DNA of 59,312 nt from a virus (taxonomy: Duplodnaviria; Caudoviricetes): IMG/VR virus record IMGVR_UViG_3300032898_000005, positions 1 to 59,312 of that record. One strand, 5' to 3'. Position numbers and translations under genes: made by a program. This document shows positions 10,504 to 26,078 of the stretch, piece by piece. The notes under the pieces were generated by a model that saw nothing but the letters and a program-made list of their open reading frames with translations, had not been told where the DNA came from and did not search any database. Position 1 is the stretch's first letter, and each line of letters starts with the position of its first letter.

Positions 10504-10920
10504 TTACGATCGATGCGGGCAGACCCCGCCGTTGAAGTGCCGAGCGCAGTTGCAGTTCCAACACAGCGTCTGATAGCCGGGCGGCCAGCCCTCGCGCCGG
10601 AGTCGGCGGAGGATTGCCTGGTTCTTTCCGCGAGGACTGTTCTCTGATCTGCGCTCCGCTGCGCCGTCACCGTTGATATGATCAATGGTGAGAAACCGGT
10701 ACTCGACTTCTCCGCAGCACTGGCATACCCCGCCGTAAGCTTCGATAGCCTCACGGCGGAGCTTGTGCCAGGATTTGCGATTAGCTTCGTTCCATTTCTC
10801 CGGATTAGCTTTCTGGTCGGCCGCGACGCGAGCGCGCGTGGCTGCCTGGTACTCCGGGTGCGTCCGGTAGTACTCACGCTGCCACTCGTTTCTGTCGAAT
10901 GCCGTCTTGTCGTCCGTCAT
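10504..10920 (-). CDS. HNH endonuclease
   Basis: CQCCG...LTIDHING...YQTLCWNCNCARH. Confidence 0.85.
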   Translation of the reverse strand: MTDDKTAFDRNEWQREYYRTHPEYQAATRARVAADQKANPEKWNEANRKSWHKLRREAIEAYGGVCQCCGEVEYRFLTIDHINGDGAAERRSENSPRGKNQAILRRLRREGWPPGYQTLCWNCNCARHFNGGVCPHRS

Positions 10921-10955: not shown

Positions 10956-12887
10956 CTAACTGTAAGGTGTCGTGTCGCGGGCCTGAAGCCCGGTCAGGAT
11001 GCCGCAGTACATCGGGGCGTTGCAGAGCAGCGCGCCGTACATGAACATCGAGTACCGGAACGTGGGGTCGATCACGGGCCAGGAGACCGAGAGGTAGTCC
11101 TGGACCAGCACCATCTCCCAGATGTTGGAGACGTTCGACCAGGAGTAGGGGACGGTGTAGGACATCGCCGCGACGGTGCCCTGCGGCCACCACGGGTGGA
11201 CCAGGAGCTTGAGGATGTCCCGCGTGAACGGGTTCACGTACTGCGACACCGCCGCACCGGCGATGACGTTGGACACCTGGTTCTGGTCGATCTTGAGCTG
11301 GTAGTTGTTCGCCTGCCCGGCCTGCAGGATGTCGTTGGACAGGTTGCTGATGTCGGTCGAGTTACCGACCAGCTCGGTCGGGCTGGCCTTGAACGCGCCG
11401 AACCCGGTGCCGTACTGCTGCGACCCGTTCCACAGCCCGTTCAGCATCTGGTTGAGGGCCGGGATGCTGAGGTGAGTGCCCACGTTCGGCTGGTAGTAAC
11501 CGGCCTGCCAGCCCACCCCGGTCGGGTAGTTGCTGCCGCCGGTCGACGCTGCCCCGGTGAGCGTCGGGATGACGCCCAGCATACGGTTCTGACCGGCGGT
11601 GCCGGAGTCGCTCGTGGGCGGCTGGTGGCCGGTCGACGGGAGGGTCGGACCCTGGATCGTGATCTTGTTGCCGCCGAGCTGCGCGTAGAAGTACGAGTTC
11701 CCCTGGCCGGGAGTCGCGCTGGTCGAGACGTACACGGCCCAGTTGTTCGCGCCCGGGGGCAGCTTGCTGGAGATCGTCACGTCCACCACGTCGCCCGCCG
11801 CCACCGTGGTGATCGCGGCGGTGTAAGTGCCGACCGTCTCGCCCCAGTAGTTCTGGGCGGTGATGCCGACGCCAAAGTCGGCGAGGGTGCCCAGGGCGGT
11901 CTCGTTCGAGCCTGCGGTACGGACGGTGAGGGTCGGGGCGGTGATGCCCGAGGTCGAGATCGCGGTGGTGTTACCAGCGATCATCTGGTACTCCTCCATG
12001 AGCATGAACTGCTGCAGGAGGATCAGGTTGGCGAGGGCGGAGATGTCCTCGTAGCCCTGGCCCGCGAACTGCGACAGCCAGGACAGCGCCTCCGACATCC
12101 CAAAGAACTGGTAGGGGATGTTGATCGGCACGGCCGACTGCACGCCGGTGACGGGCATGTTGACCGGGAACGTGCCGCCGGGCATCGTCATCGAGGAGTT
12201 CGGGACGTCCGCGAGGGAGATGTCCACGACCGCGCCTGTGCCGCCGCCGGTGCCGCCGAAGGTCTGCGAGCCGGAGATGCCCGTGACCACGTTGACCCTG
12301 CGGCTGGTGCCCTGGCCCTGGACCCGGGCGAACTTGTTGCGCAGGGGCGAGTACACCGGGTAGATCAGCCGCGACGGGTTCACCAGGTCGTAAGGGACCA
12401 GGCCCTGCGTGGCCGCCGTCAGCGGGACGGTCAGGTTGATGTTCTTGCCCAGCTCGCCCAGCGCCTGCTCGACCTGCTGGAACAGCTGGGACATCCACGC
12501 GCCGTTGCCGCCGCCCGGTCCGTCCATGGCCGCCATGAACGAGCCGTACTGGTTCAAGAAGTTGGGGTTGAGCCCCTTCATGACCTTCTTGGGGTTCTGG
12601 AACGACTTCCGTACCGTCAACCGCAGGGCCTTAGTCGCGGCGAACGCCAGACGGAAGCCGTCCGGGTCCGAGTCGTCCATCGGCGCGATCCCGTGGACCC
12701 GCCGGTTGGACCGCTCGTCGAGGACACCCGCGCCGTAACCGGCGTAGCCTGCGCCCTTTACCGCCATGTGCATCTTGCTGCCGAGCGCGTCCTGTGCCGC
12801 GCCGAACCGGCCGATGTCGCCCAGGAGGTCGGAATCCGCAGAGTCCCGGGCATGAGTCGGCCGCGTGAGGGTGTTAGCCACCTTCAA
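10956..12887 (-). CDS. Major capsid protein (643 aa) with presumed cleaved N-terminal prodomain and inserted beta-sandwich domain
   Basis: Follows the protease/scaffold; AAGGAG RBS; YDL...LIYPVYSPLRNKFARV capsid-like segment. Confidence 0.75.
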   Translation of the reverse strand: MKVANTLTRPTHARDSADSDLLGDIGRFGAAQDALGSKMHMAVKGAGYAGYGAGVLDERSNRRVHGIAPMDDSDPDGFRLAFAATKALRLTVRKSFQNPKKVMKGLNPNFLNQYGSFMAAMDGPGGGNGAWMSQLFQQVEQALGELGKNINLTVPLTAATQGLVPYDLVNPSRLIYPVYSPLRNKFARVQGQGTSRRVNVVTGISGSQTFGGTGGGTGAVVDISLADVPNSSMTMPGGTFPVNMPVTGVQSAVPINIPYQFFGMSEALSWLSQFAGQGYEDISALANLILLQQFMLMEEYQMIAGNTTAISTSGITAPTLTVRTAGSNETALGTLADFGVGITAQNYWGETVGTYTAAITTVAAGDVVDVTISSKLPPGANNWAVYVSTSATPGQGNSYFYAQLGGNKITIQGPTLPSTGHQPPTSDSGTAGQNRMLGVIPTLTGAASTGGSNYPTGVGWQAGYYQPNVGTHLSIPALNQMLNGLWNGSQQYGTGFGAFKASPTELVGNSTDISNLSNDILQAGQANNYQLKIDQNQVSNVIAGAAVSQYVNPFTRDILKLLVHPWWPQGTVAAMSYTVPYSWSNVSNIWEMVLVQDYLSVSWPVIDPTFRYSMFMYGALLCNAPMYCGILTGLQARDTTPYS

Positions 12888-12893
12888 GCTCCT

Positions 12894-15362
12894 TTACTTC
12901 GTAAGTAGCGTGGTGAGCATCTTGGTCGCGTTGAGCCGCAGACCAGGGTCACCAGACGCCGCAAGACCGTTCACGAATGCTAGGAACTCTGCGTCCTCGC
13001 TGCCGCCCTCGTCCGCACCGCCGGTGCCGATCGACTTGGCTACGAAGCTATCGCGGTCCACCGGACCGTCAAGGATGGGCAGGCCCCGGTAGGGGGCTTG
13101 TTCCGGGTCGGGGAGCGCGCCGAGCGCGGCGTTCTCCGCTGCTAGGGACTTGTTCAGGATCTCGGCCTTGGCCAGCTTCTTCCGAAGCTTGCGCTCGGCG
13201 TCGGTCTCGATTGACTTGGTTTGGCCGGGTGCCATCGCGAACGTGGGTCGCTGGCCGGGCTTGATGCCCGTCTGGCCCTCGGCCGCGGTGTAGTCCTGCA
13301 GGGACACGTTAATCGGGCACATGTCCGGCCATAGCGCGCGGACGGACTGGTGCAGCTGGGCCAGCGAGTTGATCGCCTGGCCGAACGCTGCGGTACCGGC
13401 GGTGGCCTGGCGGCCCTCGCCTGGGCTGGAGTTCGCGCGGCCCGACTGGATGTAGCCGCGCTGGAAGTCGCTAGCCGACACCGAGTGCACGGTAGCGTTC
13501 GGCAGCGAGGAGTGGCCGGACTCGCTACCGGCGGACAGGCTGGGCCGTCCGGCTGACTGGTAGCCGCGCCGGAACTGAGTCGGCTTGATGTTGGACTGCT
13601 GGGTTGGCTTGGTGTTGGGGAACAGCTCGGGGAACGCCTTCCTGGCGTCCAGGAGCGTGTCCGGCCCGATCGACTGCATCTCACCGATCGTCCGCAGCAC
13701 GTCAGTGAAGTAGGCGGCCTCGTCGGCGCGGCCCTTGGTGATCGCCTCGATGGCGACGGACTGGATCTCCTGAACCGGCAGCGCGCTTACCACGTCGGTG
13801 ACGCCGTACGCCTTGCGGACCAGCTTCCACTTGTGGCCGGGGCAGGTCAGGTCGTGCAGCCGCCGCATGCCGTCGCTGGGCGCAGACTTCGTGACGCCCC
13901 AGCTCGACCCGGGCACCCCGGTCTCGTCGCCGGGCTCGGTAGTCGAGTTCATCGACGCGTCGTGCTCGACGCCCTCGACCTGCGCGCCGTCCGGCTCGCG
14001 GTGCTTACCCGCTGGCTTCATGGTCTTGTCCTTGGCCGTGCCGTAACCGCTCTCGGCCGCGTCCCGGTCGGGCTTGCCCCGGACGCCTGCCGGAGTGTTA
14101 CCGCCGTTGTCGCCCCGGGCCGCCGCCTGGAGCGCGTTCTTCTGGGCCTTGAGAGCCAGACGGAGCGACTTGGGGAGCTTCTGCTTCTTCTTGCTCCCGG
14201 ACGTGCTCTTGTCGTCCCCGTCGCCCTCGGAGGAGCCGTCGTCGGCGTCGTCGTCCGAGTCGTCCCCGGCCGCGTCGGTGTCGGCGTCGTAGTCCGCGAT
14301 CGTGCCGTCGTCGTCGCCCTCGTCGCCCGGGGCGTCATCGGCTGCGTCGGACTTGATAACGCCGGGCTTGGCGGTCTTCTTGACGAATCCGTTTTCGCAG
14401 TCCGGGCAGTCTCGGTGACCCTCGAGGATCTTGCCGTCTCCGTGGCAGGTCGGACAGGGCTTCATGCCGTCCGGGACCTTGACGGCCTTGAGCACCATGC
14501 CCTTGCCACCGCACTTCTCGCAGTCGCTGTCGGGGCCGCTGCACGCCGGGCACGGCTTCATCCGAGCCTTGTTAGATGGTTTGTTCTGGAGGCTGGGTGG
14601 CAGGTCGCTGTCTTCCATACCGAACTTTCGGTGAGCGATAGAGCGGATCCTCGACCGTACCGCCCCGGGGTCGTCAGCGTGGTGAGCCAGGCTGGCCGCG
14701 TCGGGAACGTCGGCGGGTCCCTTGATCGGGAACGTGTGATTAGGACCGGCGAAGTCGCCGGGCGGGACGTCGGAGACGTCGCGGCCGGAGGAGTCGACGA
14801 TCTTCTTCTTTTTTCCCAGCGCCACGCGCGCCATGGGAGACAGGCTCACGGTTTTCGCCACCAGGCGCACCCCGCCGCCCTCGATCGACTTGGCGATCTC
14901 GAACGTTGTGTTCTTGTTGCTGCCCCGGTCGACCAGGCTGACCTCACCGATCGAGCCGCCGCAGATCGTCCCGCCGGGAGCGATCCGAGACTTGAACACA
15001 ATCTGCGGGTCAAGAATCCCGATCGAGAAGTCCCGAAGGACCCCCTTCTCGACCAGGTTCTTGGCGTTGGTCTCGCAGACCAGCGCCTTGAGGTAGTGCC
15101 CGCCCTGGCCGTCCTTGTCGAGTTCAAGCGCCAGTCCCTTACCCGCAGGGTACAGGAACGGGCTGTGCTGAACACGCATGTTGCCGCCGGTCGAAAGCCA
15201 CTTCTTCAGCTCTCGGGCCGACCAGCCAGGGTCGACGATCTGGTGATCGGCGTCAACGGTGCCGTCAGTGCACTTGCCGTACACTACCAGGTCTCCGTCT
15301 GGCGTCTTGTCGAACTTCAAGATTGGAAACGAGACGTGCTGAATGCGCAGATCCGTGGCCAA
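12894..15362 (-). CDS. Prohead protease fused to accessory domains and scaffold (about 822 aa)
   Basis: GGAGGTGA RBS before TTG at 15362; HK97-type protease motifs (D..HQIVD, MRVQH, FSIG, EVSLVDRGSN); DnaJ-like CxxCxGxG repeats; acidic linker; coiled-coil C-terminus. Confidence 0.8.
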   Translation of the reverse strand: MATDLRIQHVSFPILKFDKTPDGDLVVYGKCTDGTVDADHQIVDPGWSARELKKWLSTGGNMRVQHSPFLYPAGKGLALELDKDGQGGHYLKALVCETNAKNLVEKGVLRDFSIGILDPQIVFKSRIAPGGTICGGSIGEVSLVDRGSNKNTTFEIAKSIEGGGVRLVAKTVSLSPMARVALGKKKKIVDSSGRDVSDVPPGDFAGPNHTFPIKGPADVPDAASLAHHADDPGAVRSRIRSIAHRKFGMEDSDLPPSLQNKPSNKARMKPCPACSGPDSDCEKCGGKGMVLKAVKVPDGMKPCPTCHGDGKILEGHRDCPDCENGFVKKTAKPGVIKSDAADDAPGDEGDDDGTIADYDADTDAAGDDSDDDADDGSSEGDGDDKSTSGSKKKQKLPKSLRLALKAQKNALQAAARGDNGGNTPAGVRGKPDRDAAESGYGTAKDKTMKPAGKHREPDGAQVEGVEHDASMNSTTEPGDETGVPGSSWGVTKSAPSDGMRRLHDLTCPGHKWKLVRKAYGVTDVVSALPVQEIQSVAIEAITKGRADEAAYFTDVLRTIGEMQSIGPDTLLDARKAFPELFPNTKPTQQSNIKPTQFRRGYQSAGRPSLSAGSESGHSSLPNATVHSVSASDFQRGYIQSGRANSSPGEGRQATAGTAAFGQAINSLAQLHQSVRALWPDMCPINVSLQDYTAAEGQTGIKPGQRPTFAMAPGQTKSIETDAERKLRKKLAKAEILNKSLAAENAALGALPDPEQAPYRGLPILDGPVDRDSFVAKSIGTGGADEGGSEDAEFLAFVNGLAASGDPGLRLNATKMLTTLLTK

Positions 15363-15408
15363 CCGGTCACCTCCGATGTCTGGAGTAATCCTATCACGCG
15401 CCCGTGAG

Positions 15409-15570
15409 CTAGGCCACCTGGCAGGTAACCTCGATGACCACCGCATCCGTCTCGGTGATAAAAACGACCGGAGGGCCGGAGGTGGCCCCGGTGTAGACGG
15501 TCTGGTCGGTGTTGTCGATCGAGGAGTCCGAGCCCGCGATGTAGGCAACCGGCTGCTGGGTCGTGGCCAC
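15409..15570 (-). CDS. Small hypothetical protein (53 aa, MATTQQPVAY...)
   Basis: TAGGAG RBS before GTG at 15570; corresponds to the C-terminal part of track ORF 15409..16014. Confidence 0.55.
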   Translation of the reverse strand: MATTQQPVAYIAGSDSSIDNTDQTVYTGATSGPPVVFITETDAVVIEVTCQVA

Positions 15571-15578
15571 GTCCGCTC

Positions 15579-16004
15579 CTAAGGCTGGATAGACGGGTCC
15601 AGATAGAACTGGCCCCAGAACAGGTTCCGCTCGGACCCGGCCACGTCGTAGTCCATCCACAGGGCGTGGTAACCCTGGTACGGCGCTCCCAGCGGCAGCG
15701 TGGCGGCCGGATTGATCGTCAGAATCACCGAGGTCAGGAGCGAGCTGGACTGCACCGCCAGCTCGCCGCCGCCGCTCGGGATCGGGCTGGCGTCTCCGCC
15801 GTCCGAGGTCAGCAGGATCACCGGATCGGCGTCGGTCACGTTGGTCTTTACCACGTACGCGAACGTGTGCTCGGCCGGGGGGTACGGCACGATCCCGCCC
15901 GGCTGAAACATGTTGAATGACCACTGGGTGAACGACCCCCACGCCATCCGGAGGTCCCACTGCAGTGACGATACGCCTAGTGGCATGAGCCCAGTATACA
16001 GCAA
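15579..16004 (-). CDS. Hypothetical protein, possibly structural
   Basis: Beta-rich 141-aa ORF in the head operon. Confidence 0.55.
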   Translation of the reverse strand: MLYTGLMPLGVSSLQWDLRMAWGSFTQWSFNMFQPGGIVPYPPAEHTFAYVVKTNVTDADPVILLTSDGGDASPIPSGGGELAVQSSSLLTSVILTINPAATLPLGAPYQGYHALWMDYDVAGSERNLFWGQFYLDPSIQP

Positions 16005-16046
16005 GGCCCGGCACCGGTCACCCGGTCCGGGCCCTGGCTTGCCTGG

Positions 16047-16304
16047 CTACTGCATCTCGGCCTCGATCTTGTAGCCGTTCCTGACGTACTCGACGTAGCC
16101 CTCCTCGGTCAGGTTGTCCAGTTCCTCCCGGGTGAACCCGACGAGCCAGATGCCCGTGTCGGCGTCCACCTCCTCGACCGTCCGCGTCCAGGCGGTCGGA
16201 TCCATCGCGGCATTGACGGCCTCAATCGCGCTTCCGATCGACCGGACGGGCAGGCCGCTTATGGTCTCGATTATCGCGACCTGAACCAGATTGATCTCTC
16301 GCAT
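16047..16304 (-). CDS. Hypothetical protein (85 aa)
   Basis: GAGGAG RBS; followed by a hairpin at about 16003-16033. Confidence 0.6.
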   Translation of the reverse strand: MREINLVQVAIIETISGLPVRSIGSAIEAVNAAMDPTAWTRTVEEVDADTGIWLVGFTREELDNLTEEGYVEYVRNGYKIEAEMQ

Positions 16305-16318
16305 GTCTCGCTCCTCGC

Positions 16319-16411
16319 TTATTGAACGTCTGCCGCGCGCTTGGCCGCGCGGAACATGTAGCGGGTGATCGTCCAGCCGGTGAGCCGGGCTCCGGTCTCG
16401 TCTGTGTTCAT
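16319..16411 (-). CDS. Leaderless 30-aa ORF (MNTDETGARLTGWTITRYMFRAAKRAADVQ)
   Basis: ATG lies 7 nt downstream of a TGG-TTTAAT -10 box with TTGTCC -35. Confidence 0.45.
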   Translation of the reverse strand: MNTDETGARLTGWTITRYMFRAAKRAADVQ

Positions 16412-16417
16412 ACCACT

Positions 16418-16447
16418 ATTAAACCACACAGAGTGACATCCGGACAA
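16418..16447 (-). promoter_or_regulatory. SigA-type promoter overlapping palindromic operator
   Basis: TTGTCC-N18-TTTAAT; operator TTGTC-CGGAT-GTCAC at 16447-16433. Confidence 0.65.
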
Positions 16448-16452
16448 GCGGT

Positions 16453-16671
16453 TTATTTGATCGTATTTGGTCCGGTCAGGGCCGCCGCGTTACTGACGAT
16501 CGCGGGCGGGGCGGCCTGCCAGGCGGGCAGCTTCTTGAACTGACGGATAGCCGCCGCCTGCTGCGCGGCCGGTACCCCGGTTACCCCCAGGTAGCTGAGA
16601 AAGTCGTCCCAGTCGCCCAGATCCCACGTAAGGGTCTTGATCCAGTCCTCGTTAGTGTCGTCGTTAGCCAT
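16453..16671 (-). CDS. Small protein directly downstream of the ART-like domain; candidate immunity or partner protein
   Basis: GGAGGAG RBS and its own promoter; NEDWIKTLTWDL motif; position typical of an immunity gene in polymorphic toxin loci. Confidence 0.6.
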   Translation of the reverse strand: MANDDTNEDWIKTLTWDLGDWDDFLSYLGVTGVPAAQQAAAIRQFKKLPAWQAAPPAIVSNAAALTGPNTIK

Positions 16672-16692
16672 GGATATCATCTCCTCCCTACC

Positions 16693-16722
16693 ATTAAAAC
16701 ACGCTTATTGTCTCCCGGTCAA
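16693..16722 (-). promoter_or_regulatory. SigA-type promoter / operator
   Basis: TTGACC-N18-TTTAAT; TTGTC-TCCCG-GTCAA at 16708-16722 overlaps the stop codon of the giant ORF. Confidence 0.65.
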
Positions 16723-19700
16723 GTATTGCTGGTCGGCCCGACGGTTACCACGCCGGTGGCGTCCAGGCCCACCAGCTCGTACTCATTCAGGCATCCGAAG
16801 CCGGACCGGGGCCAGGACAGGATCGAGGTGACCGGCATGGACGACTTCAAGATCACGCTGGTCGAGCCGCCGTTTGCGAACGACTTGGCCGTTCCCGTGT
16901 TGACGGTCCACGACGACAGCGGCCGGAGCGGCGGGACCTCGATCTTGTCGCCGGACTTGATGCCCTTGGCCCAGTCCGGCAGCATGCCCGCATCCCATTT
17001 CATGCCACGGATGACGTTGACCCGAGTGATCCCGCGCTCCTTGAAATCCTCCTGCGTAAGCTCGTACTGGGCTCGGAGGAACGCTCGATAAGCTTCACCA
17101 TGCTGGGCGTATGCCTCGTCGATCTCGTCTTGCTTTCCCGAATCCAGGGTCCATGGGGCTACGTGGCCGCGATCGAGCCCGAACTCGTCGATAGCGGCCT
17201 CCTGCGCGACCAGGGACTTGGTGCTGGTGTCGTTCGACGTACCGGCCCAGTTCTGTACCAGCTTGGCCGCCGCCCATTGCTTGATGTCGGCGGCGGTCAG
17301 CTGCTTGTCGTAGTCGGACAGCGGGTTGAGGGCGTTCTTCTTCGAGATCGTCAGCTCGTACCCGATGTTACTCTTCTTGAACGTGTACTTGTCCGGGTGC
17401 TCGGCCGCGTCCATCATCAGGTTGTAGTGTTCGGTGTCCTCGTTGCCGTCTCCGGCGAACGCGGCGGCCACCATCTTCTTGGGCTCGACCTGGATGCGCG
17501 CGGCCAGCCGGGAAGCTACCAGCTGCTTGTGAGCCACCGCGTCATTCGCGCTGTACGGATGGCCCGGCAGGTCCTCATTGAACAGCGCGTCACGGATCGC
17601 GGTGTGCGACTCGTCCTTGGAGTCCCACGCGCCCATCTCGTGGCTGGCCGGTGCCCCGGGCTCGGGCTTGGGCACCTTGGGCGCGTTGGTCGACGCGGCG
17701 GTAGGCTTGGGCACCTTGGGCTTGGACGGAACCGCCCCGGGCTTGGTGCTCAGCTCGGCTACGATCGCGGCAGCATCGAATTCGACCTTCTCCTGCTTCT
17801 GAGCACCCTGCATGTGCTCACCGATCAGGTTGTACACCTTGACGTTAGACGAGTTCAGGCTGGCGATGGTGGTATCGGCCATCGGCCCGGCCGGGGCGAA
17901 CGTGCCGTCCGGCTGCTTTGCCTCGATCGTTACCTTGCCGTCGCCCTTGTACACCGCCCGCAGTCCGGCGTTTCGCAGTCCGGGCTTGCCCTCCGGGTGA
18001 GGCTCGATCGCGAACATCGAGTCCTTGCCGTCCGTGGTGACCACGTAAGCCCAGTTCCGGCCGTCCGGAGTGACTCCCACGTCGGTGTACGCGACCCCGG
18101 CCGTGGACCCTTCCGGCTTGCCCCCGCCCGGCTCGTCGGAGTTCTCAAGGGCGGCGGCCAGGTCCGCTAGGTGCTCGTCCGAGGTCTCGCCCGGGGCCGG
18201 GTGGGTGGCGGCGGCCGGGGCGGTCGGCTTGGGCTTGGCGGTGCCCAGCTTGGACGCCAGCTTGTCCTGCAGCTTGGCGCTGTGGCTAAGCTCCTCGTGG
18301 GCCTGGGCGTGGGTGATGTCGCCGTTCTTTACCGACGCCACCAGCTGGCTGACGTGCTTCGAGTCGTGACCAGGCAGGTAGTTCCCGCCCTTGGTCTTGG
18401 CTCCGCAGCCGTCGTGGCAGTGGCCCGGCTCGATCTTAGGCTTAGCCGGGGCCGGGTTCGGGTCGAACGTGTGGTTAGCGTGGGCGTCATAGTCCGCAGT
18501 GGAGTGGTAGAACGGGCTGACCGGGTGTCCGCTATTGTTCAGCTTTGTCTCTAGCTTACCCTGCAGCTTGGGCTTGCCGTGGAGCATGCCCAGCGCGGAC
18601 TCGGCCGTGATGTGCCCGTCCTGCACCGCCTGGTGAAGGTGGCTCACGTGCTTGGCGTCGTGGCCGGGCAGGTAGTTGCCGCCCTTGGTCTTGCCGCCGC
18701 ACCCGTCGTGGCAGTCGTTCGCGGCCGGGTCGATCAGCACGTAGCCGTGGTGGTAGGTGTACGCGGTACCGGCGATGTGGTGCCCGTGGAAGCTGTCCTT
18801 GATCAGCCGCGGGATCGCGTGCTTGTTCTTGGGGTCGCTGCCCTCGTGCACCTGGTCGAGGTGGGTCTCCTCCATGTCGTGCCGGTCGGCTGGCTCGATG
18901 TCACCGATCCACGCGGGGATCAGCTCGTCCAGCTCGTGGTACGCTAGCGCCCTATGGTGGCCGTCGACGTCGATGTAGTCGCCGTCCGGGTCGACCACCA
19001 AGACCGCCGGGTTTACGTGCTCGCCCGCCCGGATCTTGCGCTTGAACTCGTCGACCTTACCACGCTGGTGACTGGCCGCCCACTTGTCCATGTCGTCGTG
19101 GTCGACCTCGGCCCACGGCACCAGGTGCGGACCGCTCCAGGTCGCGTCCTTTACCCACTCGATCGAGTCGGGCGGGTAGTTCCGGAGCAGCTGCTGGTAG
19201 ACCTGCTCACCGATGCTGGCCGCGCTCTTCTCGATCGGGTCGCCGGTGGCCTCCAGGGCTCGGCGGACGCGCTTGGGGTGGTCCCTCAGCTCGTCTCGGA
19301 CCGCCGGGTTGTCCTTGAGTTCCGCAGGGTCCCACCACGCGACAGCTTCCGGGTTATCGTTACCTGGATCGTCCGGATTGGCACCCTTGGCACGGTCGAG
19401 GATAGGTACGTCGGACTCGGACCGTACCACCACCACGTGCCCGCGATACGGTCCCGTATCCCAAGTCGCAACAGCGTTTCCCTTTGGAACCGGCAGGCCA
19501 GTCTCTTCCGCCCATTCGCGCCTAGCGGCGTCCTCAACGCTCTCGCCGTCTTCAAGCCTGCCTCCTGGGAACTCCCACTTGCCACCGGCCGGATCGTCCT
19601 CGTCGTGCGCCCGCTGGATCATCAGCACGCGGCCGGTGTCCTTGGCCCGGACTGCCAGCCCGCCCGCCTCGAATTCAGCGGCGTCGGACTTAAACACGTT

Positions 19701-22700
19701 GCGCATCGGCTCGTAGCGGGGCACCACGGTCTTGGGCCATCCCGCCATCTTGGGCTGACGGGTGTCGCGGATCGGTCCGACGTTCAGCGCGCCACGGTTG
19801 ATGACCACGGTGCGGGCCTTGCCCTCGGACACGCCGTCGACGCCGGTCAGGGCGGCCATCCTGCCAGCGTCGTACCGGACCAGGCTCTTGTATGGCTCGG
19901 GCAGCTGCATCGCCGCGTCTTCGAGATCGTCGGCCGACTCGACCTTAGACCCGGGCTTGAACTGCATCGGCATGACGTGGGGAGTATATATCGCCGCCCC
20001 GGACGGCCCCGTCTCGTGGTTGGCGGTGTAGAACCCGGCGGTGCGCCCGCCGGTCGACGTCCGGAAATCGCCGTTAACGAACTGGTCGGCGTAGTCGCTG
20101 GCCCCGCCGCCCTCGCTACCCGAGTGGCCGAGCCAGTCGCCAAACGCGTGGTAGTGGACCGGCCGATCCGGGTCGATCGGGTCGTGCCCCGGCTTGGCGT
20201 TAAAGCCCTGGATCTCCAGCATGCGCTTAAGCACCGGGTCCACGGGGTTGTGCTCGTTGTCGAGCGGCAGCTTGTCAAGCTCCTGCAGCTCGGCCAGGTG
20301 CGGTGCCCAGTCCTCGGGCTTGGTTAGCTTGGCCCCGCCGCCGCTGCCCGCGCCCGGCACGCCCACGAACACCCATCCGTGCTCGTAGCCGTGGGGTCCG
20401 ACCTTGCCCAGCTCGTGCCGCTCGAAGTCCCGGTAGGTCAGGCCGGACGCCAGGTACTCCTCCAGGACCAGCGACTTGGCCACCGACATCGGCGCTACGG
20501 TGGTGGACTCGACCGGGAGTCGCTTGGGCAGGATCGCGCAGCGGCACTCGGGGTGGCCGGGCGGGAAGGTGTCGCCGGTGTCGTACACCTGGTCGATCGG
20601 GATGACGCCCTGATCGACGTTCAGCTTGCAGTGCGGGCACACCCGGTCGTCCTTTGCACTGCTCCACTTCTTGGCGTCCTGGTCGGCCTTCCTGTACTCC
20701 GCGACTGATGCCTGCGTGGTAGCGCGGGCAAGCTCGGTACCGGCGACCATGAGGGCGCGCTGCGGGTTCGACAGGATCTGCTTGATGTCGGCGGCGATCG
20801 TGTCGGCGGAGTCGCCGTCCTCGAATCCCTCGGCCAGGGCGTTGGCCAGGTCGGTCATCCGGGTCTGGGTTACTGACTTGATCGTCTGGATGCCGTAGTC
20901 GTCGAGTAGCTGCTGAAGGCCGTTACCGGCGACCAGGCGGGCCGCCGCCGCGTCGCCCGGGGTCCACTCGTCCCAGAACGTCGAGTCGTAGGCGGAGCTT
21001 AGCTGCTCCCTGGCGGCCTCTCGGCCGACCGCGAATCCCTCGGCCCACAGGTTGCCAAGAACCTGCTGCACCACGTCCTGGATCGCCTGATCGAACCCAC
21101 GAGAGGTCAGCCAGCTCCACGCCTGCTGAGCGAGGTTCGACAGTGCGCCCTTGTTCGCCGTGGCAGTGCGGCTCTGCAGCCAGTCCTCGGCCATGTTCGA
21201 GTGCAGGGCCGCCAGACCGGCGGACAGCCGGTCGGCGTACAGGTCCTTGAGCTGTAGGTCGTACCGCCACCCGGCCCAGTCACGAGGGTAGGCCGTCGTA
21301 GGCCGCCCAGCTTTTGGGAGCACCGCCGCCCGCGACTTCTGGTTCTGGTCGACCGTAGCGCCGTTGTCGTGCTGGTGACCGTCGTGCGCGGCCTCACCAC
21401 GCGGGCAGTAGCGGCAGTTGCCGTCGCCGTCGTCGGTGAAGTCGTGCGGTCCGCTGCGATAGGACTGCTGGATAGGCTGCTCGCCCCGGTGCTGCCGCTG
21501 TCTCCCCACCGACGTGGTAAGCCCGCCCTGGCCGCCCATGAGGTCGTACGGGGCCAGGCCCTGCTGTCCGTCCTGCGAGTCCAGCGGCACGGTCGTGGAC
21601 AGCACCTTCTCGATCCGGCCTGCGATCGTCGGCGGGCCGAAGCATCCGATCACGAACTGGCGGGTGACGCGGTAAGCGTCGTCCGCGTCCAGCGACTTGA
21701 GCAGCTCGCCGTAGTGCTCGACCACCGGCTCGGGCAGGTGCCTCGACTGCCAGTCCTCGACCCGGGTGCCCTTCTTCACCTTGCGCCGCAGCGCGTCCAG
21801 CTCAGACAGCATCGCTTTGGTCGAGGGCCGCGCTGGCTGGTTCTGCTCCGAGCCGGGCAGCTCGTCGCTGGCGGACGGCGGCCGGACCGGCGGTGCCAGC
21901 GGCTTGCCTGCAGCGAAGTCCTCGTGCATCTGCTGCTGGACCTGGGCGTGGGCTTCCTGGGCGGACTGCCGCGCCTGACCCACCTTATCGTCGGGGTGCA
22001 GCTTGGGCGGCGGTGCCGGATGCTGGGGATCGGTGCCCGGGTCGCCCGGCTTGAGCGGCTTACCGAACGCGTCGGCAGGCCCGGCAGGCGGCCCGCCGGG
22101 TGCCGTGCCCGGCGGGCCGCCTGGCTTGGGAGCGCCAGCCGCGCCCGGTGGTGTCGTCCCGGGCTTCGGAGGGGTCGCGGAGCCACTCGGGAGCGCCGGG
22201 CGGCCAGCCGCACCGGGAACTTGCGGAGGGCCGCCCGGAGCGCCTCCGCCGGGCGGCGGGGGTGCGCCGATCGCGGCCGGGGGCGGGGTGCCCATCGGCT
22301 TGCCGGTGGTGGGGTCGATCGAGCCCAGCGGGACCATGCCCGCAGTCGGTGAGACGAACACGGGGTCGGAGGTGATCGGCAGTCCGTACGGGGGCTTGCC
22401 GAGGGCGATGCGGCACTCGTCGATCGGGGCCAGGCCGTTCGACAGCATCTTGACCAGGCGGTCGACGAGGGAGTCCTCGTCCTCGTCCTCCTCCAGGCCC
22501 TCGAACATGAACCGCATGTCCTCTTGCTTCCAGATCACCTGGATTAGGACATTGAAGATGTCGGTCAGGAACGACAAGGTTGGCTTGGTCGACTTGCGCT
22601 GCTGCTTGTCCTGGCTGGCCTTGGCCATCTGGTTCGACGCACCAGGCGACTGGGTGGCGCTGACCTTGGGCGAGATGCCAAGCTCCATCGGCTCGACGTC

Positions 22701-23939
22701 GTAGCCCATGCAGATCTGCGTCATGATCACCTCGTCCGACTGGTCCGCGATCTCGATGGGCTTCATCGGGAACACCTTGGAGCCAGGCGGAAGGGCGATG
22801 CTCTTGTGCTTCCAGGCGGGGTCGCCAGCCAGGGCGTTGTTCTGGTCCTGCCAGATCTGCAGCTGGTTCGGCGTCCAGCCTAGGTTCTCGCCGGGGCTGA
22901 TGTAGTTGCCCGGGATCGTGCCCTCGTCGAAGAAGTCCATCTGAAACTGCTGCTTGCGCAGTCCGGTGATGGTCGGGATCAAGGTGCGTTCGAGGGGCGG
23001 GAAGCCGTACGGGGTCCACGCGCGCTGCGTGTAGGGAAGGTACAGCAGCTGGTCGCCCCGGTACTCCTTGGCGGGCTTGCCCAGCTCCTTGATGACGTCC
23101 TGGTCGGTGCCGTCGAGGATCTGCATCAGGTCGACCCTAGGGACGCCGTAAAGGTACTGCTGGTAGCCGGGCGACGGCGGGGCCACCCGGCCGCCGCGCG
23201 TGTTAACCAGAGGGCGGATCGTGCTGCCGCTGATGACCTCCAGCGCGGCCACGTCGCTGCCGAAGGGTCCTGCGCCCTTCTTCTTCGTGGGGTGCACGTA
23301 CAGCGAGGTCGCGTCGGTTACCAGCATCTCCTCGACGATGGCGTCGATGTAGCTGCCGAAGCTGATGTAGTCGGGGTCGGGCCGCTTGAAGAACCGCACC
23401 ACCTCGGCACGCCGCTCGGCAAAGTCGCGGTGCGCCGCCACGTCGCCGCGCATCTTCTTCTCGGCTTCCTTGGTGGGCATGATGTCCCACTCAAGGCCGC
23501 GAATCTCGTTCTTTCGGAGCTGGATGCACGCGCGGGCGACCGAGTAGATGTCGGCGTACATCCGCAGCGTGCCGAACGACGCGAGCTTGAAGCCCTCCGA
23601 GCCGGGCACGCCTACCGGCATGTTCCAGCCGACCGGCATCTCGCGCTGCCTCGGGCCGGGCCGCTCGTCGTCGCCGTCCGGAACGTTGATCGGCACCGTC
23701 TCGATCGGCGTCAGCGGCGTGAACGTACCGGCCAGGAACTGCATCGGGTCGCGAGGGAGTGGGGCGGCCAGGTTGTGACCGTACAGCATCTGCTGGTAGG
23801 TCGACACGGCCGGGCTCATCACCGACACCCCGCCGACCTGCTTGCGAACCTCGTTCCGCATCTTGGCGCGCTTCATCGCCGCTACCACGCGGGTGGGATC
23901 AGTTGCCACCGTCACCTCGTCCGCTCGTCGCCGCGTCAA
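16719..23939 (-). CDS. Giant portal - MuF (gp7-like) - multi-effector fusion protein (2406 aa)
   Basis: Portal-like N-terminal ~545 aa (YSVARACI, PYGFPPLE); Pro-rich linker; MuF signature KKW...DDRVCPHC...PPGHPECRC; NUDIX box GGRLEDGESVEDAARREWAEETG; ParB-like DGHHRALA; two CHDGCG..GHD fingers; C-terminal R...SSWT...EYE ADP-ribosyltransferase pattern. Confidence 0.85.
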   Translation of the reverse strand: MTRRRADEVTVATDPTRVVAAMKRAKMRNEVRKQVGGVSVMSPAVSTYQQMLYGHNLAAPLPRDPMQFLAGTFTPLTPIETVPINVPDGDDERPGPRQREMPVGWNMPVGVPGSEGFKLASFGTLRMYADIYSVARACIQLRKNEIRGLEWDIMPTKEAEKKMRGDVAAHRDFAERRAEVVRFFKRPDPDYISFGSYIDAIVEEMLVTDATSLYVHPTKKKGAGPFGSDVAALEVISGSTIRPLVNTRGGRVAPPSPGYQQYLYGVPRVDLMQILDGTDQDVIKELGKPAKEYRGDQLLYLPYTQRAWTPYGFPPLERTLIPTITGLRKQQFQMDFFDEGTIPGNYISPGENLGWTPNQLQIWQDQNNALAGDPAWKHKSIALPPGSKVFPMKPIEIADQSDEVIMTQICMGYDVEPMELGISPKVSATQSPGASNQMAKASQDKQQRKSTKPTLSFLTDIFNVLIQVIWKQEDMRFMFEGLEEDEDEDSLVDRLVKMLSNGLAPIDECRIALGKPPYGLPITSDPVFVSPTAGMVPLGSIDPTTGKPMGTPPPAAIGAPPPPGGGAPGGPPQVPGAAGRPALPSGSATPPKPGTTPPGAAGAPKPGGPPGTAPGGPPAGPADAFGKPLKPGDPGTDPQHPAPPPKLHPDDKVGQARQSAQEAHAQVQQQMHEDFAAGKPLAPPVRPPSASDELPGSEQNQPARPSTKAMLSELDALRRKVKKGTRVEDWQSRHLPEPVVEHYGELLKSLDADDAYRVTRQFVIGCFGPPTIAGRIEKVLSTTVPLDSQDGQQGLAPYDLMGGQGGLTTSVGRQRQHRGEQPIQQSYRSGPHDFTDDGDGNCRYCPRGEAAHDGHQHDNGATVDQNQKSRAAVLPKAGRPTTAYPRDWAGWRYDLQLKDLYADRLSAGLAALHSNMAEDWLQSRTATANKGALSNLAQQAWSWLTSRGFDQAIQDVVQQVLGNLWAEGFAVGREAAREQLSSAYDSTFWDEWTPGDAAAARLVAGNGLQQLLDDYGIQTIKSVTQTRMTDLANALAEGFEDGDSADTIAADIKQILSNPQRALMVAGTELARATTQASVAEYRKADQDAKKWSSAKDDRVCPHCKLNVDQGVIPIDQVYDTGDTFPPGHPECRCAILPKRLPVESTTVAPMSVAKSLVLEEYLASGLTYRDFERHELGKVGPHGYEHGWVFVGVPGAGSGGGAKLTKPEDWAPHLAELQELDKLPLDNEHNPVDPVLKRMLEIQGFNAKPGHDPIDPDRPVHYHAFGDWLGHSGSEGGGASDYADQFVNGDFRTSTGGRTAGFYTANHETGPSGAAIYTPHVMPMQFKPGSKVESADDLEDAAMQLPEPYKSLVRYDAGRMAALTGVDGVSEGKARTVVINRGALNVGPIRDTRQPKMAGWPKTVVPRYEPMRNVFKSDAAEFEAGGLAVRAKDTGRVLMIQRAHDEDDPAGGKWEFPGGRLEDGESVEDAARREWAEETGLPVPKGNAVATWDTGPYRGHVVVVRSESDVPILDRAKGANPDDPGNDNPEAVAWWDPAELKDNPAVRDELRDHPKRVRRALEATGDPIEKSAASIGEQVYQQLLRNYPPDSIEWVKDATWSGPHLVPWAEVDHDDMDKWAASHQRGKVDEFKRKIRAGEHVNPAVLVVDPDGDYIDVDGHHRALAYHELDELIPAWIGDIEPADRHDMEETHLDQVHEGSDPKNKHAIPRLIKDSFHGHHIAGTAYTYHHGYVLIDPAANDCHDGCGGKTKGGNYLPGHDAKHVSHLHQAVQDGHITAESALGMLHGKPKLQGKLETKLNNSGHPVSPFYHSTADYDAHANHTFDPNPAPAKPKIEPGHCHDGCGAKTKGGNYLPGHDSKHVSQLVASVKNGDITHAQAHEELSHSAKLQDKLASKLGTAKPKPTAPAAATHPAPGETSDEHLADLAAALENSDEPGGGKPEGSTAGVAYTDVGVTPDGRNWAYVVTTDGKDSMFAIEPHPEGKPGLRNAGLRAVYKGDGKVTIEAKQPDGTFAPAGPMADTTIASLNSSNVKVYNLIGEHMQGAQKQEKVEFDAAAIVAELSTKPGAVPSKPKVPKPTAASTNAPKVPKPEPGAPASHEMGAWDSKDESHTAIRDALFNEDLPGHPYSANDAVAHKQLVASRLAARIQVEPKKMVAAAFAGDGNEDTEHYNLMMDAAEHPDKYTFKKSNIGYELTISKKNALNPLSDYDKQLTAADIKQWAAAKLVQNWAGTSNDTSTKSLVAQEAAIDEFGLDRGHVAPWTLDSGKQDEIDEAYAQHGEAYRAFLRAQYELTQEDFKERGITRVNVIRGMKWDAGMLPDWAKGIKSGDKIEVPPLRPLSSWTVNTGTAKSFANGGSTSVILKSSMPVTSILSWPRSGFGCLNEYELVGLDATGVVTVGPTSNT

Positions 23940-25190: not shown

Positions 25191-25892
25191 CTACTTGGCG
25201 TCGGCTGGGGCCGGGGCCGCGTCCTTGGCGGCGGCCTTGGCCTGCTTGGCGGCGGCGGCCTTGTCGGCCCTGGCCTGCGCGTTGTCCAGCGCGCGGGTGG
25301 TCTTGGCCTTCAGCGGCTCGGAGATCTTGGCGGCGGCCTTGATCGCCTCGTCCCGGGAGGTCTCGCCCTTGCCGACCAGCGCGACCAGGTTGCTGACCAT
25401 CCGGGCGTCGTGGCCCTGGCGGAACAGCGAGCCCTTGCCGGTGACCTGGCCGCAGCCGCACTGGCACTGGACCGGGACCAGCTCGGGCTTGGGGGTCTTG
25501 GCGGGCTTCTCGGTCTTGGCGGGCTTAGTAGCCATCGCGGTCTCCTCAGTGTCAGTGCTGCTGCAGTATTCCTCGTGCTCCTCGCCCTCGGGGGCGAAGC
25601 ACTCGTCGCAAGTATCGGCGACGCTGACCCCGGCCGCGATGCGGTCGGCGTCGGTGACCGGGCGAGCCCAGAACCGGCTAGCGACGCCGCCGAACCAGAA
25701 CTCGCCGCCGACGATCCCGTCCACCACGTACTTGACGTGCAGGCCGTCGCGGTCGGTACTGATCAGGGCCAGCTTGCCCTCGGCCAGAGGCGACTTGCGG
25801 TCGCGGCCCAGCAGGACCAACTGGTCGGCGTGACCGTGGTCCTTGTGGGTGCCCCAAGTCGGCTCGGTCGCGGTGGTGGTGGTCTCGCTCAT
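25191..25892 (-). CDS. Protein with CxCGCG...GHDA zinc-finger and Lys/Ala-rich tail
   Basis: GAGG RBS before ATG at 25892; internal GAGGAG RBS before ATG at 25535; CQCGCGQVTGKGSLFRQGHDARM. Confidence 0.7.
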   Translation of the reverse strand: MSETTTTATEPTWGTHKDHGHADQLVLLGRDRKSPLAEGKLALISTDRDGLHVKYVVDGIVGGEFWFGGVASRFWARPVTDADRIAAGVSVADTCDECFAPEGEEHEEYCSSTDTEETAMATKPAKTEKPAKTPKPELVPVQCQCGCGQVTGKGSLFRQGHDARMVSNLVALVGKGETSRDEAIKAAAKISEPLKAKTTRALDNAQARADKAAAAKQAKAAAKDAAPAPADAK

Positions 25893-25936
25893 CTCGGGCT
25901 CCTCTCGGCGGGCGGAACGCCCGCCCTGTAATTCCA

Positions 25937-26078
25937 ATTAAACCATGGCCCGTGACTCCTTGACAAGTCCATTCGACATATCCGTGCGAACCAAGATCGT
26001 AGCACACGCTTTGCTTCTCTCGCGTACGCACGAGCCCGCGAACGGGGGTTGTCACGGTGTCAATTAGTGTGGTTTACT
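25937..26078. promoter_or_regulatory. Divergent promoter pair, each on a TTGWC-N5-GWCAA-type operator
   Basis: Leftward TTGTCA-N18-TTTAAT (25966-25937); rightward TTGTCA-N18-TTTACT (26049-26078). Confidence 0.7.

Follow-up and report, generated by a model that had tools for sequence, protein, structure and literature searches.

Why should a phage portal fusion protein carry a copy of a peptide that lies in the major capsid protein? The window analysed here (the whole 59,312-nucleotide stretch of viral DNA) raises this question, because its portal-MuF-NUDIX fusion and its capsid protein have a 23-residue stretch in common (K778–L800 in the fusion, K148–L168 in the capsid protein; Table 1), hereafter the cassette. 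To our knowledge, the mechanism by which effectors fused to portal or MuF domains are released from the portal and retained in the head is not known. Such polyvalent proteins are presumed to be packed and injected, and those described in the relevant sections of one study have the architecture seen here, joining portal, MuF, NUDIX, ParB-like and other domains (Iyer, Burroughs, Anand, de Souza and Aravind 2017, PMC5512222). The passages of that study on MuF, cleavage, the portal and the prohead protease mention no copy of a capsid junction, and our literature search found no description of such a copy on cargo.

Table 1 Features of the locus (positions refer to the window).
Feature	Position	Strand	Evidence or remark
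Portal-MuF-NUDIX-ParB-like polyvalent fusion, 2406 codons as longest ORF	16719..23939	(-)	
Start of conserved linker domain (TKAMLSELDALRRKVKKG...), ahead of the cassette	21768..21821	(-)	Found in all clades, cassette-less ones included
Cassette copy in the portal-MuF fusion, K778-VLSTTVPLDSQDGQQGLAPYDL-L800	21540..21608	(-)	BLASTP, conservation in relatives, profile search
Cys/His cluster (NCRYCPRGEAAHDGH) directly behind the cassette	21375..21419	(-)	
Predicted prohead protease (N-terminal ~170 residues) with long scaffold-like tail	12894..15362	(-)	
Protease domain as modelled	14712..15344	(-)	
Invariant His of the protease domain	15165-15167	(-)	
Invariant Ser of the protease domain	15024-15026	(-)	
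Scaffold-tail site with a conserved Lys, ARK-AFPELFPN	13614..13646	(-)	
Major capsid protein, 643 residues, HK97 fold (model)	10956..12887	(-)	
Capsid junction, K148-NINLTVPLTAATQGLVPYDL-L168, start of the N-arm directly behind the helical N-terminal domain	12384..12446	(-)	

Re-reading of the sequence placed both peptides on the minus strand where the initial annotation had put them, and its naming of the two proteins was borne out. The large ORF, proposed to be a portal-MuF-cargo fusion, unites in one polypeptide a portal domain (residues ~95–521; PHROG portal family phrog_2662, E 4.3e-59; Pfam Phage_portal 33.8 bits, under the cut-off of 39.1), a MuF domain (residues 1030–1136; Phage_Mu_F 51.2 bits, cut-off 29.6) and a NUDIX domain (residues 1432–1544; 69.1 bits, cut-off 21.1), together with a weak ParB-like match. 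Other fusions also have comparable Cys/His clusters downstream of the cassette. Along the minus strand, the fusion is followed by three small ORFs, the protease-scaffold gene and the capsid gene.

The product of the last of these is, on the evidence of its structural model, an HK97-fold major capsid protein whose first ~145 residues form a helical domain and which has a further domain inserted at about residues 305–425. VIA-align matched the model to 45 chains at Z of at least 8, including SPO1 (Z 11.4, rmsd 5.6, 216 aligned), HK97 1ohg (Z 9.7, rmsd 6.2, 199 aligned) and encapsulin shells (Z 8.4–10), and the matches listed were capsid or encapsulin shells with the exception of one to the inserted domain. 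The model is weak (mean pLDDT 56.7; below 50 over residues 99–281), and Foldseek returned only weak rows for it (SPO1, E 0.011). A search of solved structures by sequence with the capsid profile found no relative, and GenBank phage records yielded four weak capsid matches (two phages with two records each; closest 24–30% identity).

We then evaluated the strength of the match between the two peptides. The common pattern, K-x6-P-L...QGL[AV]PYDL, occurs in only two copies in the window; in six-frame scans of the window, both PYDL and VP[LIVM]..G[LIVM].PYD were restricted to these fusion and capsid sites, and TVPL gave two extra, unrelated matches. When the fusion was compared with the capsid protein by BLASTP, the cassette segment ranked first (26.9 bits, E 0.010 for this single comparison), and hhalign of 12 copies against 43 capsid proteins aligned exactly the stretch K...PSR (P 5.8e-5, probability 66%). 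A profile of the copies, searched against 17,118 six-frame ORFs (1.9 M residues) from 80 related loci, placed the five capsid junctions of the window phage's clade at ranks 3–7, right behind the two true copies, at E 0.53–1.1 each, with the following matches at E 5 or higher; against the window alone, the capsid ORF ranked third of 998 (E 0.53). An E of ~0.5 at this rank does not make the profile hit on the capsid junction significant in its own right; what lends weight to the match is that a single specific site was hit and that relatives have kept the copy. A profile made without the window recovered the window's fusion copy at E 2.5e-13. Local alignment of each locus's junction with its upstream ORFs gave a clear excess only for the window (score 56, best shuffle 40) and locus L003 (51 and 37), the best shuffle being beaten by 2 points each, at unrelated sites, in L022, L028 and L078. 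By sequence comparison, the match between fusion and capsid exceeds chance, and the shared peptide claimed in the initial annotation is real.

The whole linker aligned with the capsid family at P 1.5e-4 across 89 columns (hhalign), whereas the part upstream of the cassette gave only P 0.013, and a broader profile of 22 linkers P 0.07; on these weak upstream scores, we rejected an extension of the likeness into the scaffolding domain and take it to be confined to the cassette. This confinement could be read to mean that the capsid likeness has no present meaning, being a coincidence or a relic of old recombination in a linker motif conserved for some unrelated reason, and such a reading would also suit the modest scores (BLASTP E 0.01; HMM E ~0.5 in the window and in the 80 loci) and a spacer that is 2 residues longer in the copies than in the capsid junction. 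We regard it as very improbable: the spacer of the capsid family itself ranges from 2 to 8 residues, the hhalign signal falls precisely at the junction, the junctions are the best non-self matches among the 17,118 ORFs, and the motif was retained after a move to a different protein. The Q-G-L signature, described below as specific to one clade, also speaks against it.

The fusion copy is kept in 7 of 8 informative homologous fusions, as a linker with large insertions and deletions varies around it. Twelve instances align without gaps, with invariant K, P (+7), G (+13) and QGLAP (+15 to +19); conservation reaches ~20 residues past the Lys towards the C-terminus, is absent ahead of it, and is centred on two anchors, K-x-hydrophobic-x-hydrophobic..P-[LIMV] and QGLAP, the YDL that follows being lost in 6 of the 12. 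In locus L005 the fusion has no cassette, but the adjoining gene encodes a 427-residue protein that begins MTDTK-TFTTAQPLAEFDGAQGLAP. Among 84 homologues of this protein, five carry the cassette, four of them within the first 6 residues and followed by a polybasic run, and the remaining homologues begin straight at the conserved domain; a search of the window found no homologue. Since the copy is conserved in fusions, yet sits on the neighbouring protein where the fusion is without it, the cassette is portable, and its position at the head of a stand-alone protein favours a general signal over a portal-bound role.

A DNA pattern scan retrieved 13 true copies (all 3 viral matches, 10 of 15 metagenome matches and none of the 5 matches in reference genomes), of which 9 lie in fusion linkers and 4 are N-terminal, and an alignment-based search for the cassette with five rows returned the L003 contig only. 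In the four genomes where both proteins could be paired, the cassette is on exactly one of them (the fusion in three, the stand-alone protein in one); the assignment of copies and capsid proteins to one genome is partly indirect, relying in some cases on contigs of equal length. Five distant relatives (genomes of 78–130 kb with portal-cargo fusions) contained no second copy of their own junction: genome searches with that junction hit the capsid gene only, an HMM run over their ~269,000 translated residues gave a best E of 0.76, and inspection of their fusion linkers by eye revealed no junction copy. The cassette is thus dispensable for such fusions in general.

On the capsid side, the junction Lys (K148; K146 in 641-residue numbering) is at least 90% conserved, the basic residue at this site is K or R all through the family, and GLVPxDL keeps its G, P and L in all 43 homologues. 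QGLVPYDL is present in 21 of 21 capsid proteins of the window phage's clade and Q-G-L in all cassette copies, whereas none of the 37 other rows of the capsid alignment has Q at that site (the nearest outgroups have [SA]GF); among capsid proteins, Q-G-L is specific to this clade. Co-variation of copy and capsid, which had been put forward as a check on the relationship, is therefore seen between clades (Q-G-L, PYDL), but not within the clade, where the capsid junction is invariant and the copies vary after QGLAP.

The position of the junction was compared with that of HK97. Predicted helices of the capsid protein stop at residue 142, four residues short of the Lys at 146 (641-residue numbering), in keeping with its earlier placement at the end of the helical N-terminal domain; HK97 residue 120 aligns to model residue 167, which sets HK97 S104 at about residue 151, so that in structural register the Lys lies ~5 residues or less from the mapped HK97 cut. 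According to the account of the scaffolding domain in PMC10275583, the HK97 gp5 cut, K103/S104, falls in a flexible stretch, within a helix-turn-strand arrangement in which the strand K92–G97 precedes the cut at K103; the strand from K92 joins the P-domain sheet, and the N-arm takes roughly the place of the scaffold once the latter is removed. The window phage resembles this system (gp5 with the gp4 protease, as presented there) in its HK97-fold capsid protein, the helical N-terminal scaffolding domain with a Lys at its end, the flexible stretch ahead of the N-arm, and a predicted protease gene just upstream. It differs in having a 643-residue capsid protein with an inserted domain, a protease with a scaffold-like tail of ~650 residues, and a junction peptide that is also found on a portal fusion or another head-gene product. 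By this analogy, which makes the cut position in the window phage's capsid a prediction, the shell protein is probably trimmed near the shared stretch; compared with the cut directly after the Lys proposed in the initial annotation, one behind the strand-like part, 6–12 residues past the Lys, fits the HK97 layout equally well.

Judged from its sequence family and its model, the gene upstream of the capsid gene probably encodes a remote prohead protease. Its likely start is a TTG at 15362 preceded by GGAGG, the longest ORF extending to 15548. All 30 sequences compared have H60 and S107, which presumably form the catalytic pair. The three top Foldseek matches of the model (pLDDT 74) were T4 gp21 chains of 5jbl (E 0.008–0.019, prob 1.00, TM 0.46–0.59), with herpesvirus proteases lower in the same list (E 0.14–0.22) and no match at E of 0.001 or below. 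The window's own domain had no Pfam match up to E 10, PF04586 included; Peptidase_S78 was found in 7 of 10 homologues at 11.7–17.6 bits (under the curated cut-off of 21), and S78_2 in one at 20.2 bits (cut-off 24). The scaffold-like tail is conserved family-wide, and at least 39 of 54 loci have in it a K-[ASE]-F site that may be a third substrate site; the resemblance of this site to the cassette is limited to K, a hydrophobic +2 residue and, in the window phage's clade, Pro at +7. Complex prediction of the protease domain with the cassette, run twice without controls, scored 0.00 both times and carries no weight in either direction.

The explanation that we favour, and to which we give about an even chance, is that the peptide common to both proteins serves in protease processing and targeting, as a cassette through which cargo is freed from the portal. 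The cassette would be a portable copy of the maturation junction, i.e., the stretch linking the capsid scaffolding domain to the N-arm. The prohead protease, whose gene lies between those for portal and capsid and which is located inside the procapsid, would handle any protein bearing it like the capsid protein; the 12 portal fusions would be cut at or near K778, and the MuF-NUDIX-ParB cargo (~1600 residues) would be released from the portal ring within the head. In relatives, an N-terminal cassette would mark the stand-alone protein for identical handling. We infer recognition by the protease, cutting at the cassette and the exact cut position from several lines: the likeness is specific to the capsid junction with its clade-specific Q-G-L, the copy is conserved in a variable linker and portable, the junction position fits a maturation site with a predicted protease present, and the K-[ASE]-F site is conserved in the scaffold tail. 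Counted against processing are the window protease without a Pfam match and the sub-threshold S78 scores of its homologues, and likewise the junction profile E of ~0.5, the distant fusions without a copy and the indirect genome pairing.

With ~20 conserved residues C-terminal of the Lys and none N-terminal, the cassette looks odd as a simple P4-P4' protease site. In the N-terminal copies, moreover, where only 2–5 residues precede the Lys, cutting right behind it would seem pointless; by HK97 analogy, the Lys may instead open a docking strand, with the cut further on. The same features suit a docking or loading peptide, a broader form of the idea in the initial annotation (which also allowed for nucleation of capsid assembly at the portal), in which the cassette mimics the capsid strand and the start of the N-arm, binds the inner face of the shell and holds the MuF cargo or the stand-alone protein in the procapsid, cleavage being secondary or absent. 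The two anchors span more than a protease needs, hardly anything precedes the Lys in N-terminal copies, the first anchor alternates in a beta-strand-like manner (the HK97 K92 strand, as described in PMC10275583, joins the P-domain sheet), the four paired genomes have the cassette on one protein each, and the capsid match is clade-specific. We nevertheless consider docking rather unlikely, as no binding site is visible where the capsid model falls below pLDDT 50 (residues 99–281), vacant shell sites are hard to see, other than possibly at the portal vertex, given that each subunit has its own copy in cis, and YDL, the best N-arm match, is missing from 6 of the 12 aligned copies.

In encapsulins, cargo is brought to the inner surface of the shell by cargo-loading peptides, which are short and terminal. 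The parallel with the window phage is an HK97-fold shell, and the likeness is drawn as one of concept; encapsulins are without the protease step proposed for this phage. A combined version, in which the cassette is a cargo-loading peptide on the inner shell that holds host-bound enzymes until the head protease releases them, with docking sites perhaps being those left empty around the portal vertex, is unlikely in our estimate. If true, these phages would have their own equivalent of encapsulin cargo loading, movable from gene to gene.

In phage T4, the internal proteins IPI-III and Alt reportedly carry a portable short N-terminal capsid targeting sequence tied to the gp21 protease; proteins with this sequence are packed in the head and delivered to the host, and the signal is removed at an L/I-x-E site. 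PMC10052503 cites Mullaney and Black 1996 in this connection. The four stand-alone proteins of relatives are similar in being headed by a portable short peptide. The T4 signal, however, is unlike the T4 capsid protein, whereas here a capsid-junction copy of ~23 residues is found, also in mid-fusion, and L/I-x-E is not conserved in the 12 aligned copies. A signal of this kind could also work through the scaffold: the scaffold-like tail of the protease would grip the cassette on the capsid protein, and the copies would let the scaffold bring other proteins into the assembling head, as with the T4 internal proteins. The portable N-terminal placement resembles a targeting sequence, the ~650-residue tail is fused to the protease and conserved in the family, and the scaffold-binding parts of P22 and T7 lie under the capsomer near the N-arm (cited in PMC10275583, in its part on scaffolding). 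Nothing favours the scaffold tail over the protease or the shell, and, with a scaffolding-type domain already present at the N-terminus of the capsid protein, a second scaffold contact at this spot is an assumption; we thus hold scaffold binding to be quite unlikely.

For the processing cassette, a precedent comes from giant phages: as reported in the sections of PMC10052503 on SPN3US gp245 and phiKZ, one protease cuts capsid, portal and ejected proteins at a motif that they share, with 14 sites in nine substrates found by mass spectrometry. That motif consists of a few residues with P-side preferences, and N-terminal propeptides of 20–254 residues are removed (PMC10052503, same sections); the common stretch in the window phage, by contrast, is ~20 residues long and lies on the C-terminal side of the Lys.

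The cassette resembles a movable processing or loading signal. A portable peptide of ~23 residues would provide a direct handle on how giant portal/MuF-fused effectors are released and retained in the head and also, should it prove to function as a tag for loading or processing, a simple tool to place chosen proteins in HK97-type heads.

The peptide that the initial annotation had claimed for both the portal fusion and the major capsid protein was present in the two ORFs, as K778-VLSTTVPLDSQDGQQGLAPYDL in the fusion and K148-NINLTVPLTAATQGLVPYDL in the capsid protein, and a six-frame scan of the window found PYDL and the combined pattern at these two sites only. Below, the junction is the capsid stretch from the conserved Lys to the N-arm, and the cassette is the approximately 23-residue peptide resembling it. 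A BLASTP comparison of the fusion with the capsid protein gave E = 0.010 (single pair), and when 12 copies were aligned with the capsid family, hhalign gave P = 5.8e-5 and a probability of 66% over 27 columns, spanning exactly K...PSR. When the copy profile was searched against 17,118 ORFs from 80 related loci, two true copies ranked first, followed by five clade capsid junctions (E = 0.53–1.1), with all others at E of at least 5; within the window only, the capsid ORF ranked third of 998 (E = 0.53), behind one spurious frame. In comparisons of the upstream parts, the likeness between fusion linker and capsid protein did not continue N-terminal of the Lys. At the sequence level, the fusion–capsid similarity is thus specific, not strong.

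The window (an IMG/VR virus record of 59,312 bases, G+C 67%, completeness estimated at 86%) carries its genes mostly on the minus strand. Its largest head-module ORF combines a portal domain (residues 95–521, PHROG E = 4e-59; Pfam 33.8 bits, below the cut-off), a MuF domain (residues 1030–1136, 51 bits) and a NUDIX domain (residues 1432–1544, 69 bits), together with a weak ParB-like match and further domains. These matches bear out its designation as a portal-MuF-cargo fusion and place it among the portal/MuF polyvalent proteins, a class that Iyer et al. 2017 surveyed (PMC5512222). The protein collection's version of this fusion (P0123, 2087 residues) begins within the portal domain, at codon 320. 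Since the window ORF is open for its full 2406 codons and codon 320 falls inside the PHROG portal match, the shorter product seems to be a start-site artefact. The fusion also contains two tandem Cys/His-rich units (CHDGCG.KTKGGNYLPGHD.KHVS; phrog_5395/5477), a family also found as a separate ORF. By precomputed Pfam labels, parts of the window's cargo are replaced in the relatives P0124, P0131 and P0160 by an ADP-ribosyltransferase (PF03496) or by a zeta-toxin-like kinase that carries an AAA domain (PF06414, PF13671), which is typical polyvalent-protein mosaicism. Another junction peptide that recurs, K[VI]GPHGY.HGW, lies between cargo domains of the fusions, in the window as well as in P0124, P0127 (three times), P0131 (twice) and P0132, and within a stand-alone 427-residue protein; it may be a domain-border mark or a small hairpin module.

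Features of the window, in head-module order.
Feature	Coordinates	Strand	Length	Remarks
Large terminase	27572-29134			
Separate Cys/His-rich ORF	25191-25937	-	248 residues	upstream of portal gene
Portal/MuF fusion ORF	16719-23939	-	2406 codons	
Cassette in fusion	21540-21608	-		
K[VI]GPHGY.HGW peptide	20373-20405	-		within fusion
Tandem Cys/His-rich units	~18300-18800	-		within fusion
Three small ORFs				between fusion ORF and protease-scaffold ORF
Protease-scaffold ORF	12894-15362 (longest ORF to 15548)	-	about 820-880 codons	
CXXCXGXG cluster	14499-14552	-		in scaffold-like tail
Capsid ORF	10956-12887	-	643 codons	
Capsid junction	12384-12446	-		
HNH endonuclease gene	10504-10920	-		directly downstream of capsid gene; phrog_2255, E 2e-10
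Tail genes, including tape measure				

The 643-residue protein had no Pfam match, and PHROGs returned only a family of unknown function, from residue 138 onward. The AlphaFold2 model, computed from 43 homologues, was weak (pLDDT 56.7, residues 99–281 below 50); its structural search against representatives nevertheless returned 45 chains with Z of at least 8, and the rows shown were HK97-fold shells except for one matching an inserted domain. These included SPO1 (Z = 11.4), the HK97 head 1ohg (Z = 9.7, model 174–634 against chain 128–383) and HK97 Prohead I 3qpr (Z = 8.5, model 167 against chain 120). The modelled structure thus bears out the earlier choice of this ORF as the major capsid gene, with an HK97 fold. 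In passages of PMC10275583, HK97 is cleaved at K103/S104, in a flexible stretch. Register extrapolated through the low-confidence part of our model places S104, the mature N-terminus, at about residue 151, with the Lys at 146 in model numbering; helices are predicted to residue 142 and coil beyond, which would fit an N-terminal scaffolding-type domain. The Lys was conserved in at least 90% of the 43 homologues, and the G, P and L of GLVPxDL were invariant; other capsid clades have K or R as the junction basic residue, and a 24%-identical homologue from Thermoanaerobacterium phage THSA-485A reads AK-TLNVAS-GLQMYNL after only about 30 residues. A position at the maturation junction is plausible for this Lys: its proposed place at the N-arm boundary agrees with the end of the helical part, about 5 residues from the extrapolated HK97 site, while the cut after it is what we infer. 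A 51%-identical capsid homologue (P0033) comes from a 678-kb contig with the name Actinoallomurus vinaceus, which points to prophage relatives in actinobacteria and gives a clue to the group's host range.

Conservation of the motif in homologous fusions held in seven of the eight that cover the linker (window, P0124, P0125, P0127, P0128, P0129 and L003); P0126 and P0130, which start downstream of the cassette, were left out. The linker flanks carry large insertions and deletions; in P0127, for instance, some 200 additional residues stand immediately ahead of the cassette. The eighth fusion (P0131, identical to the fusion of L005) has the cassette stretch deleted, and the next gene in that genome, encoding 427 residues, begins MTDTK-TFTTAQPLAEFDGAQGLAP. 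Among 84 homologues of this stand-alone protein, five carry the cassette: in four of them it lies within the first six residues and a polybasic run comes next, in the fifth a leader of some 56 residues precedes it. The remaining 79 begin directly with the shared domain. Twelve instances aligned without gaps, with K, P(+7), G(+13) and QGLAP invariant and the sequence downstream of QGLAP variable (YDL, M.., L..). A DNA pattern scan built on these invariant positions yielded 13 true copies, nine in fusion linkers and four N-terminal, from 3/3 matches in viral contigs and 10/15 in metagenome contigs; none of the five matches in reference genomes was a true copy. In the four genomes where fusion and stand-alone protein could be paired, a small sample with partly indirect pairing, exactly one of the two bore the cassette. 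The cassette is real, conserved and portable. The stand-alone protein (L005:4652-5935) and its 84 homologues have in common a domain roughly 80 residues long (..AQTLRDYWSGHGH..WGTPGDFDRCV..AKGYCNLRHH..), which has no copy in the window and which in Streptomyces records is joined to Peptidase_S78 proteases plus 2H phosphoesterase or NUDIX domains.

Co-variation of copy and capsid was found only at the level of the clade, the window's own group of capsid proteins. All 21 clade capsid proteins read [ST]QGLVPYDL, with an invariant junction; Q preceded the Gly in 0/37 other rows of the family alignment, the nearest outgroups having [SA]GFVP there. QGLAP is common to all copies, and those extending further have YDL, never FDL. 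Since the spacer from P-L to G-L can be anything from 2 to 8 residues long among the capsid homologues, it is nothing unusual that copy and capsid differ by two residues here. Five distant relatives (78–130 kb), whose portal-cargo fusions have the same linker domain, carried neither the cassette nor a copy of their own junction. From the clade-only match and this absence, the cassette looks like an invention of the window's clade, modelled on its capsid junction.

The ORF upstream of the capsid gene is read as a remote prohead serine protease with a scaffold-like tail. Its N-terminal ~170 residues are conserved across the family, with H60 and S107 (the Ser at 15024-15026) invariant. The window's protease domain had no Pfam match even at E = 10, and homologues gave sub-threshold Peptidase_S78 in 7/10 (E = 0.004–0.29) and S78_2 in one, which leaves the domain outside formal Pfam membership. 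The top Foldseek matches of its model (pLDDT 74) were three T4 gp21 chains (E = 0.008–0.019, TM 0.46–0.59), with herpesvirus proteases ranking lower. Within the tail lies a zinc-finger cluster of the DnaJ type (CXXCXGXG; Pfam 26.7 bits, below the cut-off of 32.7). The tail also bears a conserved Lys site of the form K-[ASE]-F (ARK-AFPELFPN in the window), which a loose pattern recovered from no fewer than 39 of 54 loci and which is suggestive only as a third candidate site. In a distant clade (loci L015, L019, L022, L030, L064, L078 and others), the tail Lys site reads HK-[SAE]F[TRQ]DANPGPG; in the form HK-SFTDANPGPG it resembles that clade's own capsid junction, K-SFTAGNLGIG, which may be the protease's site signature. 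All sites share a K/R and, two positions on with any residue between, a hydrophobic residue, a pattern that the HK97 mature N-terminus (K|S-L) fits.

The most economical reading, to which we give roughly an even chance, is that the cassette would make its bearer a substrate, perhaps a client, of the head protease, as for the capsid protein, and that cargo would be cut off the portal inside the head. We go no higher because conservation lies wholly C-terminal of the Lys, because the N-terminal copies have almost no leader, and because the HK97 layout would let the Lys open a docking strand, with the cut further on. In passages of PMC10275583, HK97 scaffold residues 76–103 form a helix-turn-strand whose strand K92–G97 joins the P-domain sheet, and the N-arm moves roughly into the scaffold's place once this is removed. 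The same three points make docking a live rival, in which the cassette would mimic the capsid arm or a scaffold strand, comparable to an encapsulin loading peptide; docking may also be the second half of the substrate mechanism.

T4 has a portable capsid targeting sequence. For T4 and giant phages it is established that one protease motif can recur across capsid, portal and ejected proteins, with 14 cleavage sites measured across nine SPN3US substrates (passages of PMC10052503). The literature searched gave no description of a capsid-junction copy on cargo. Unlike those systems, the cassette belongs to an HK97-type phage with polyvalent cargo and copies the capsid junction itself. Shared protease motifs and portable targeting being already known, the new element is a junction copy of about 23 residues, carried on polyvalent cargo and movable between genes.
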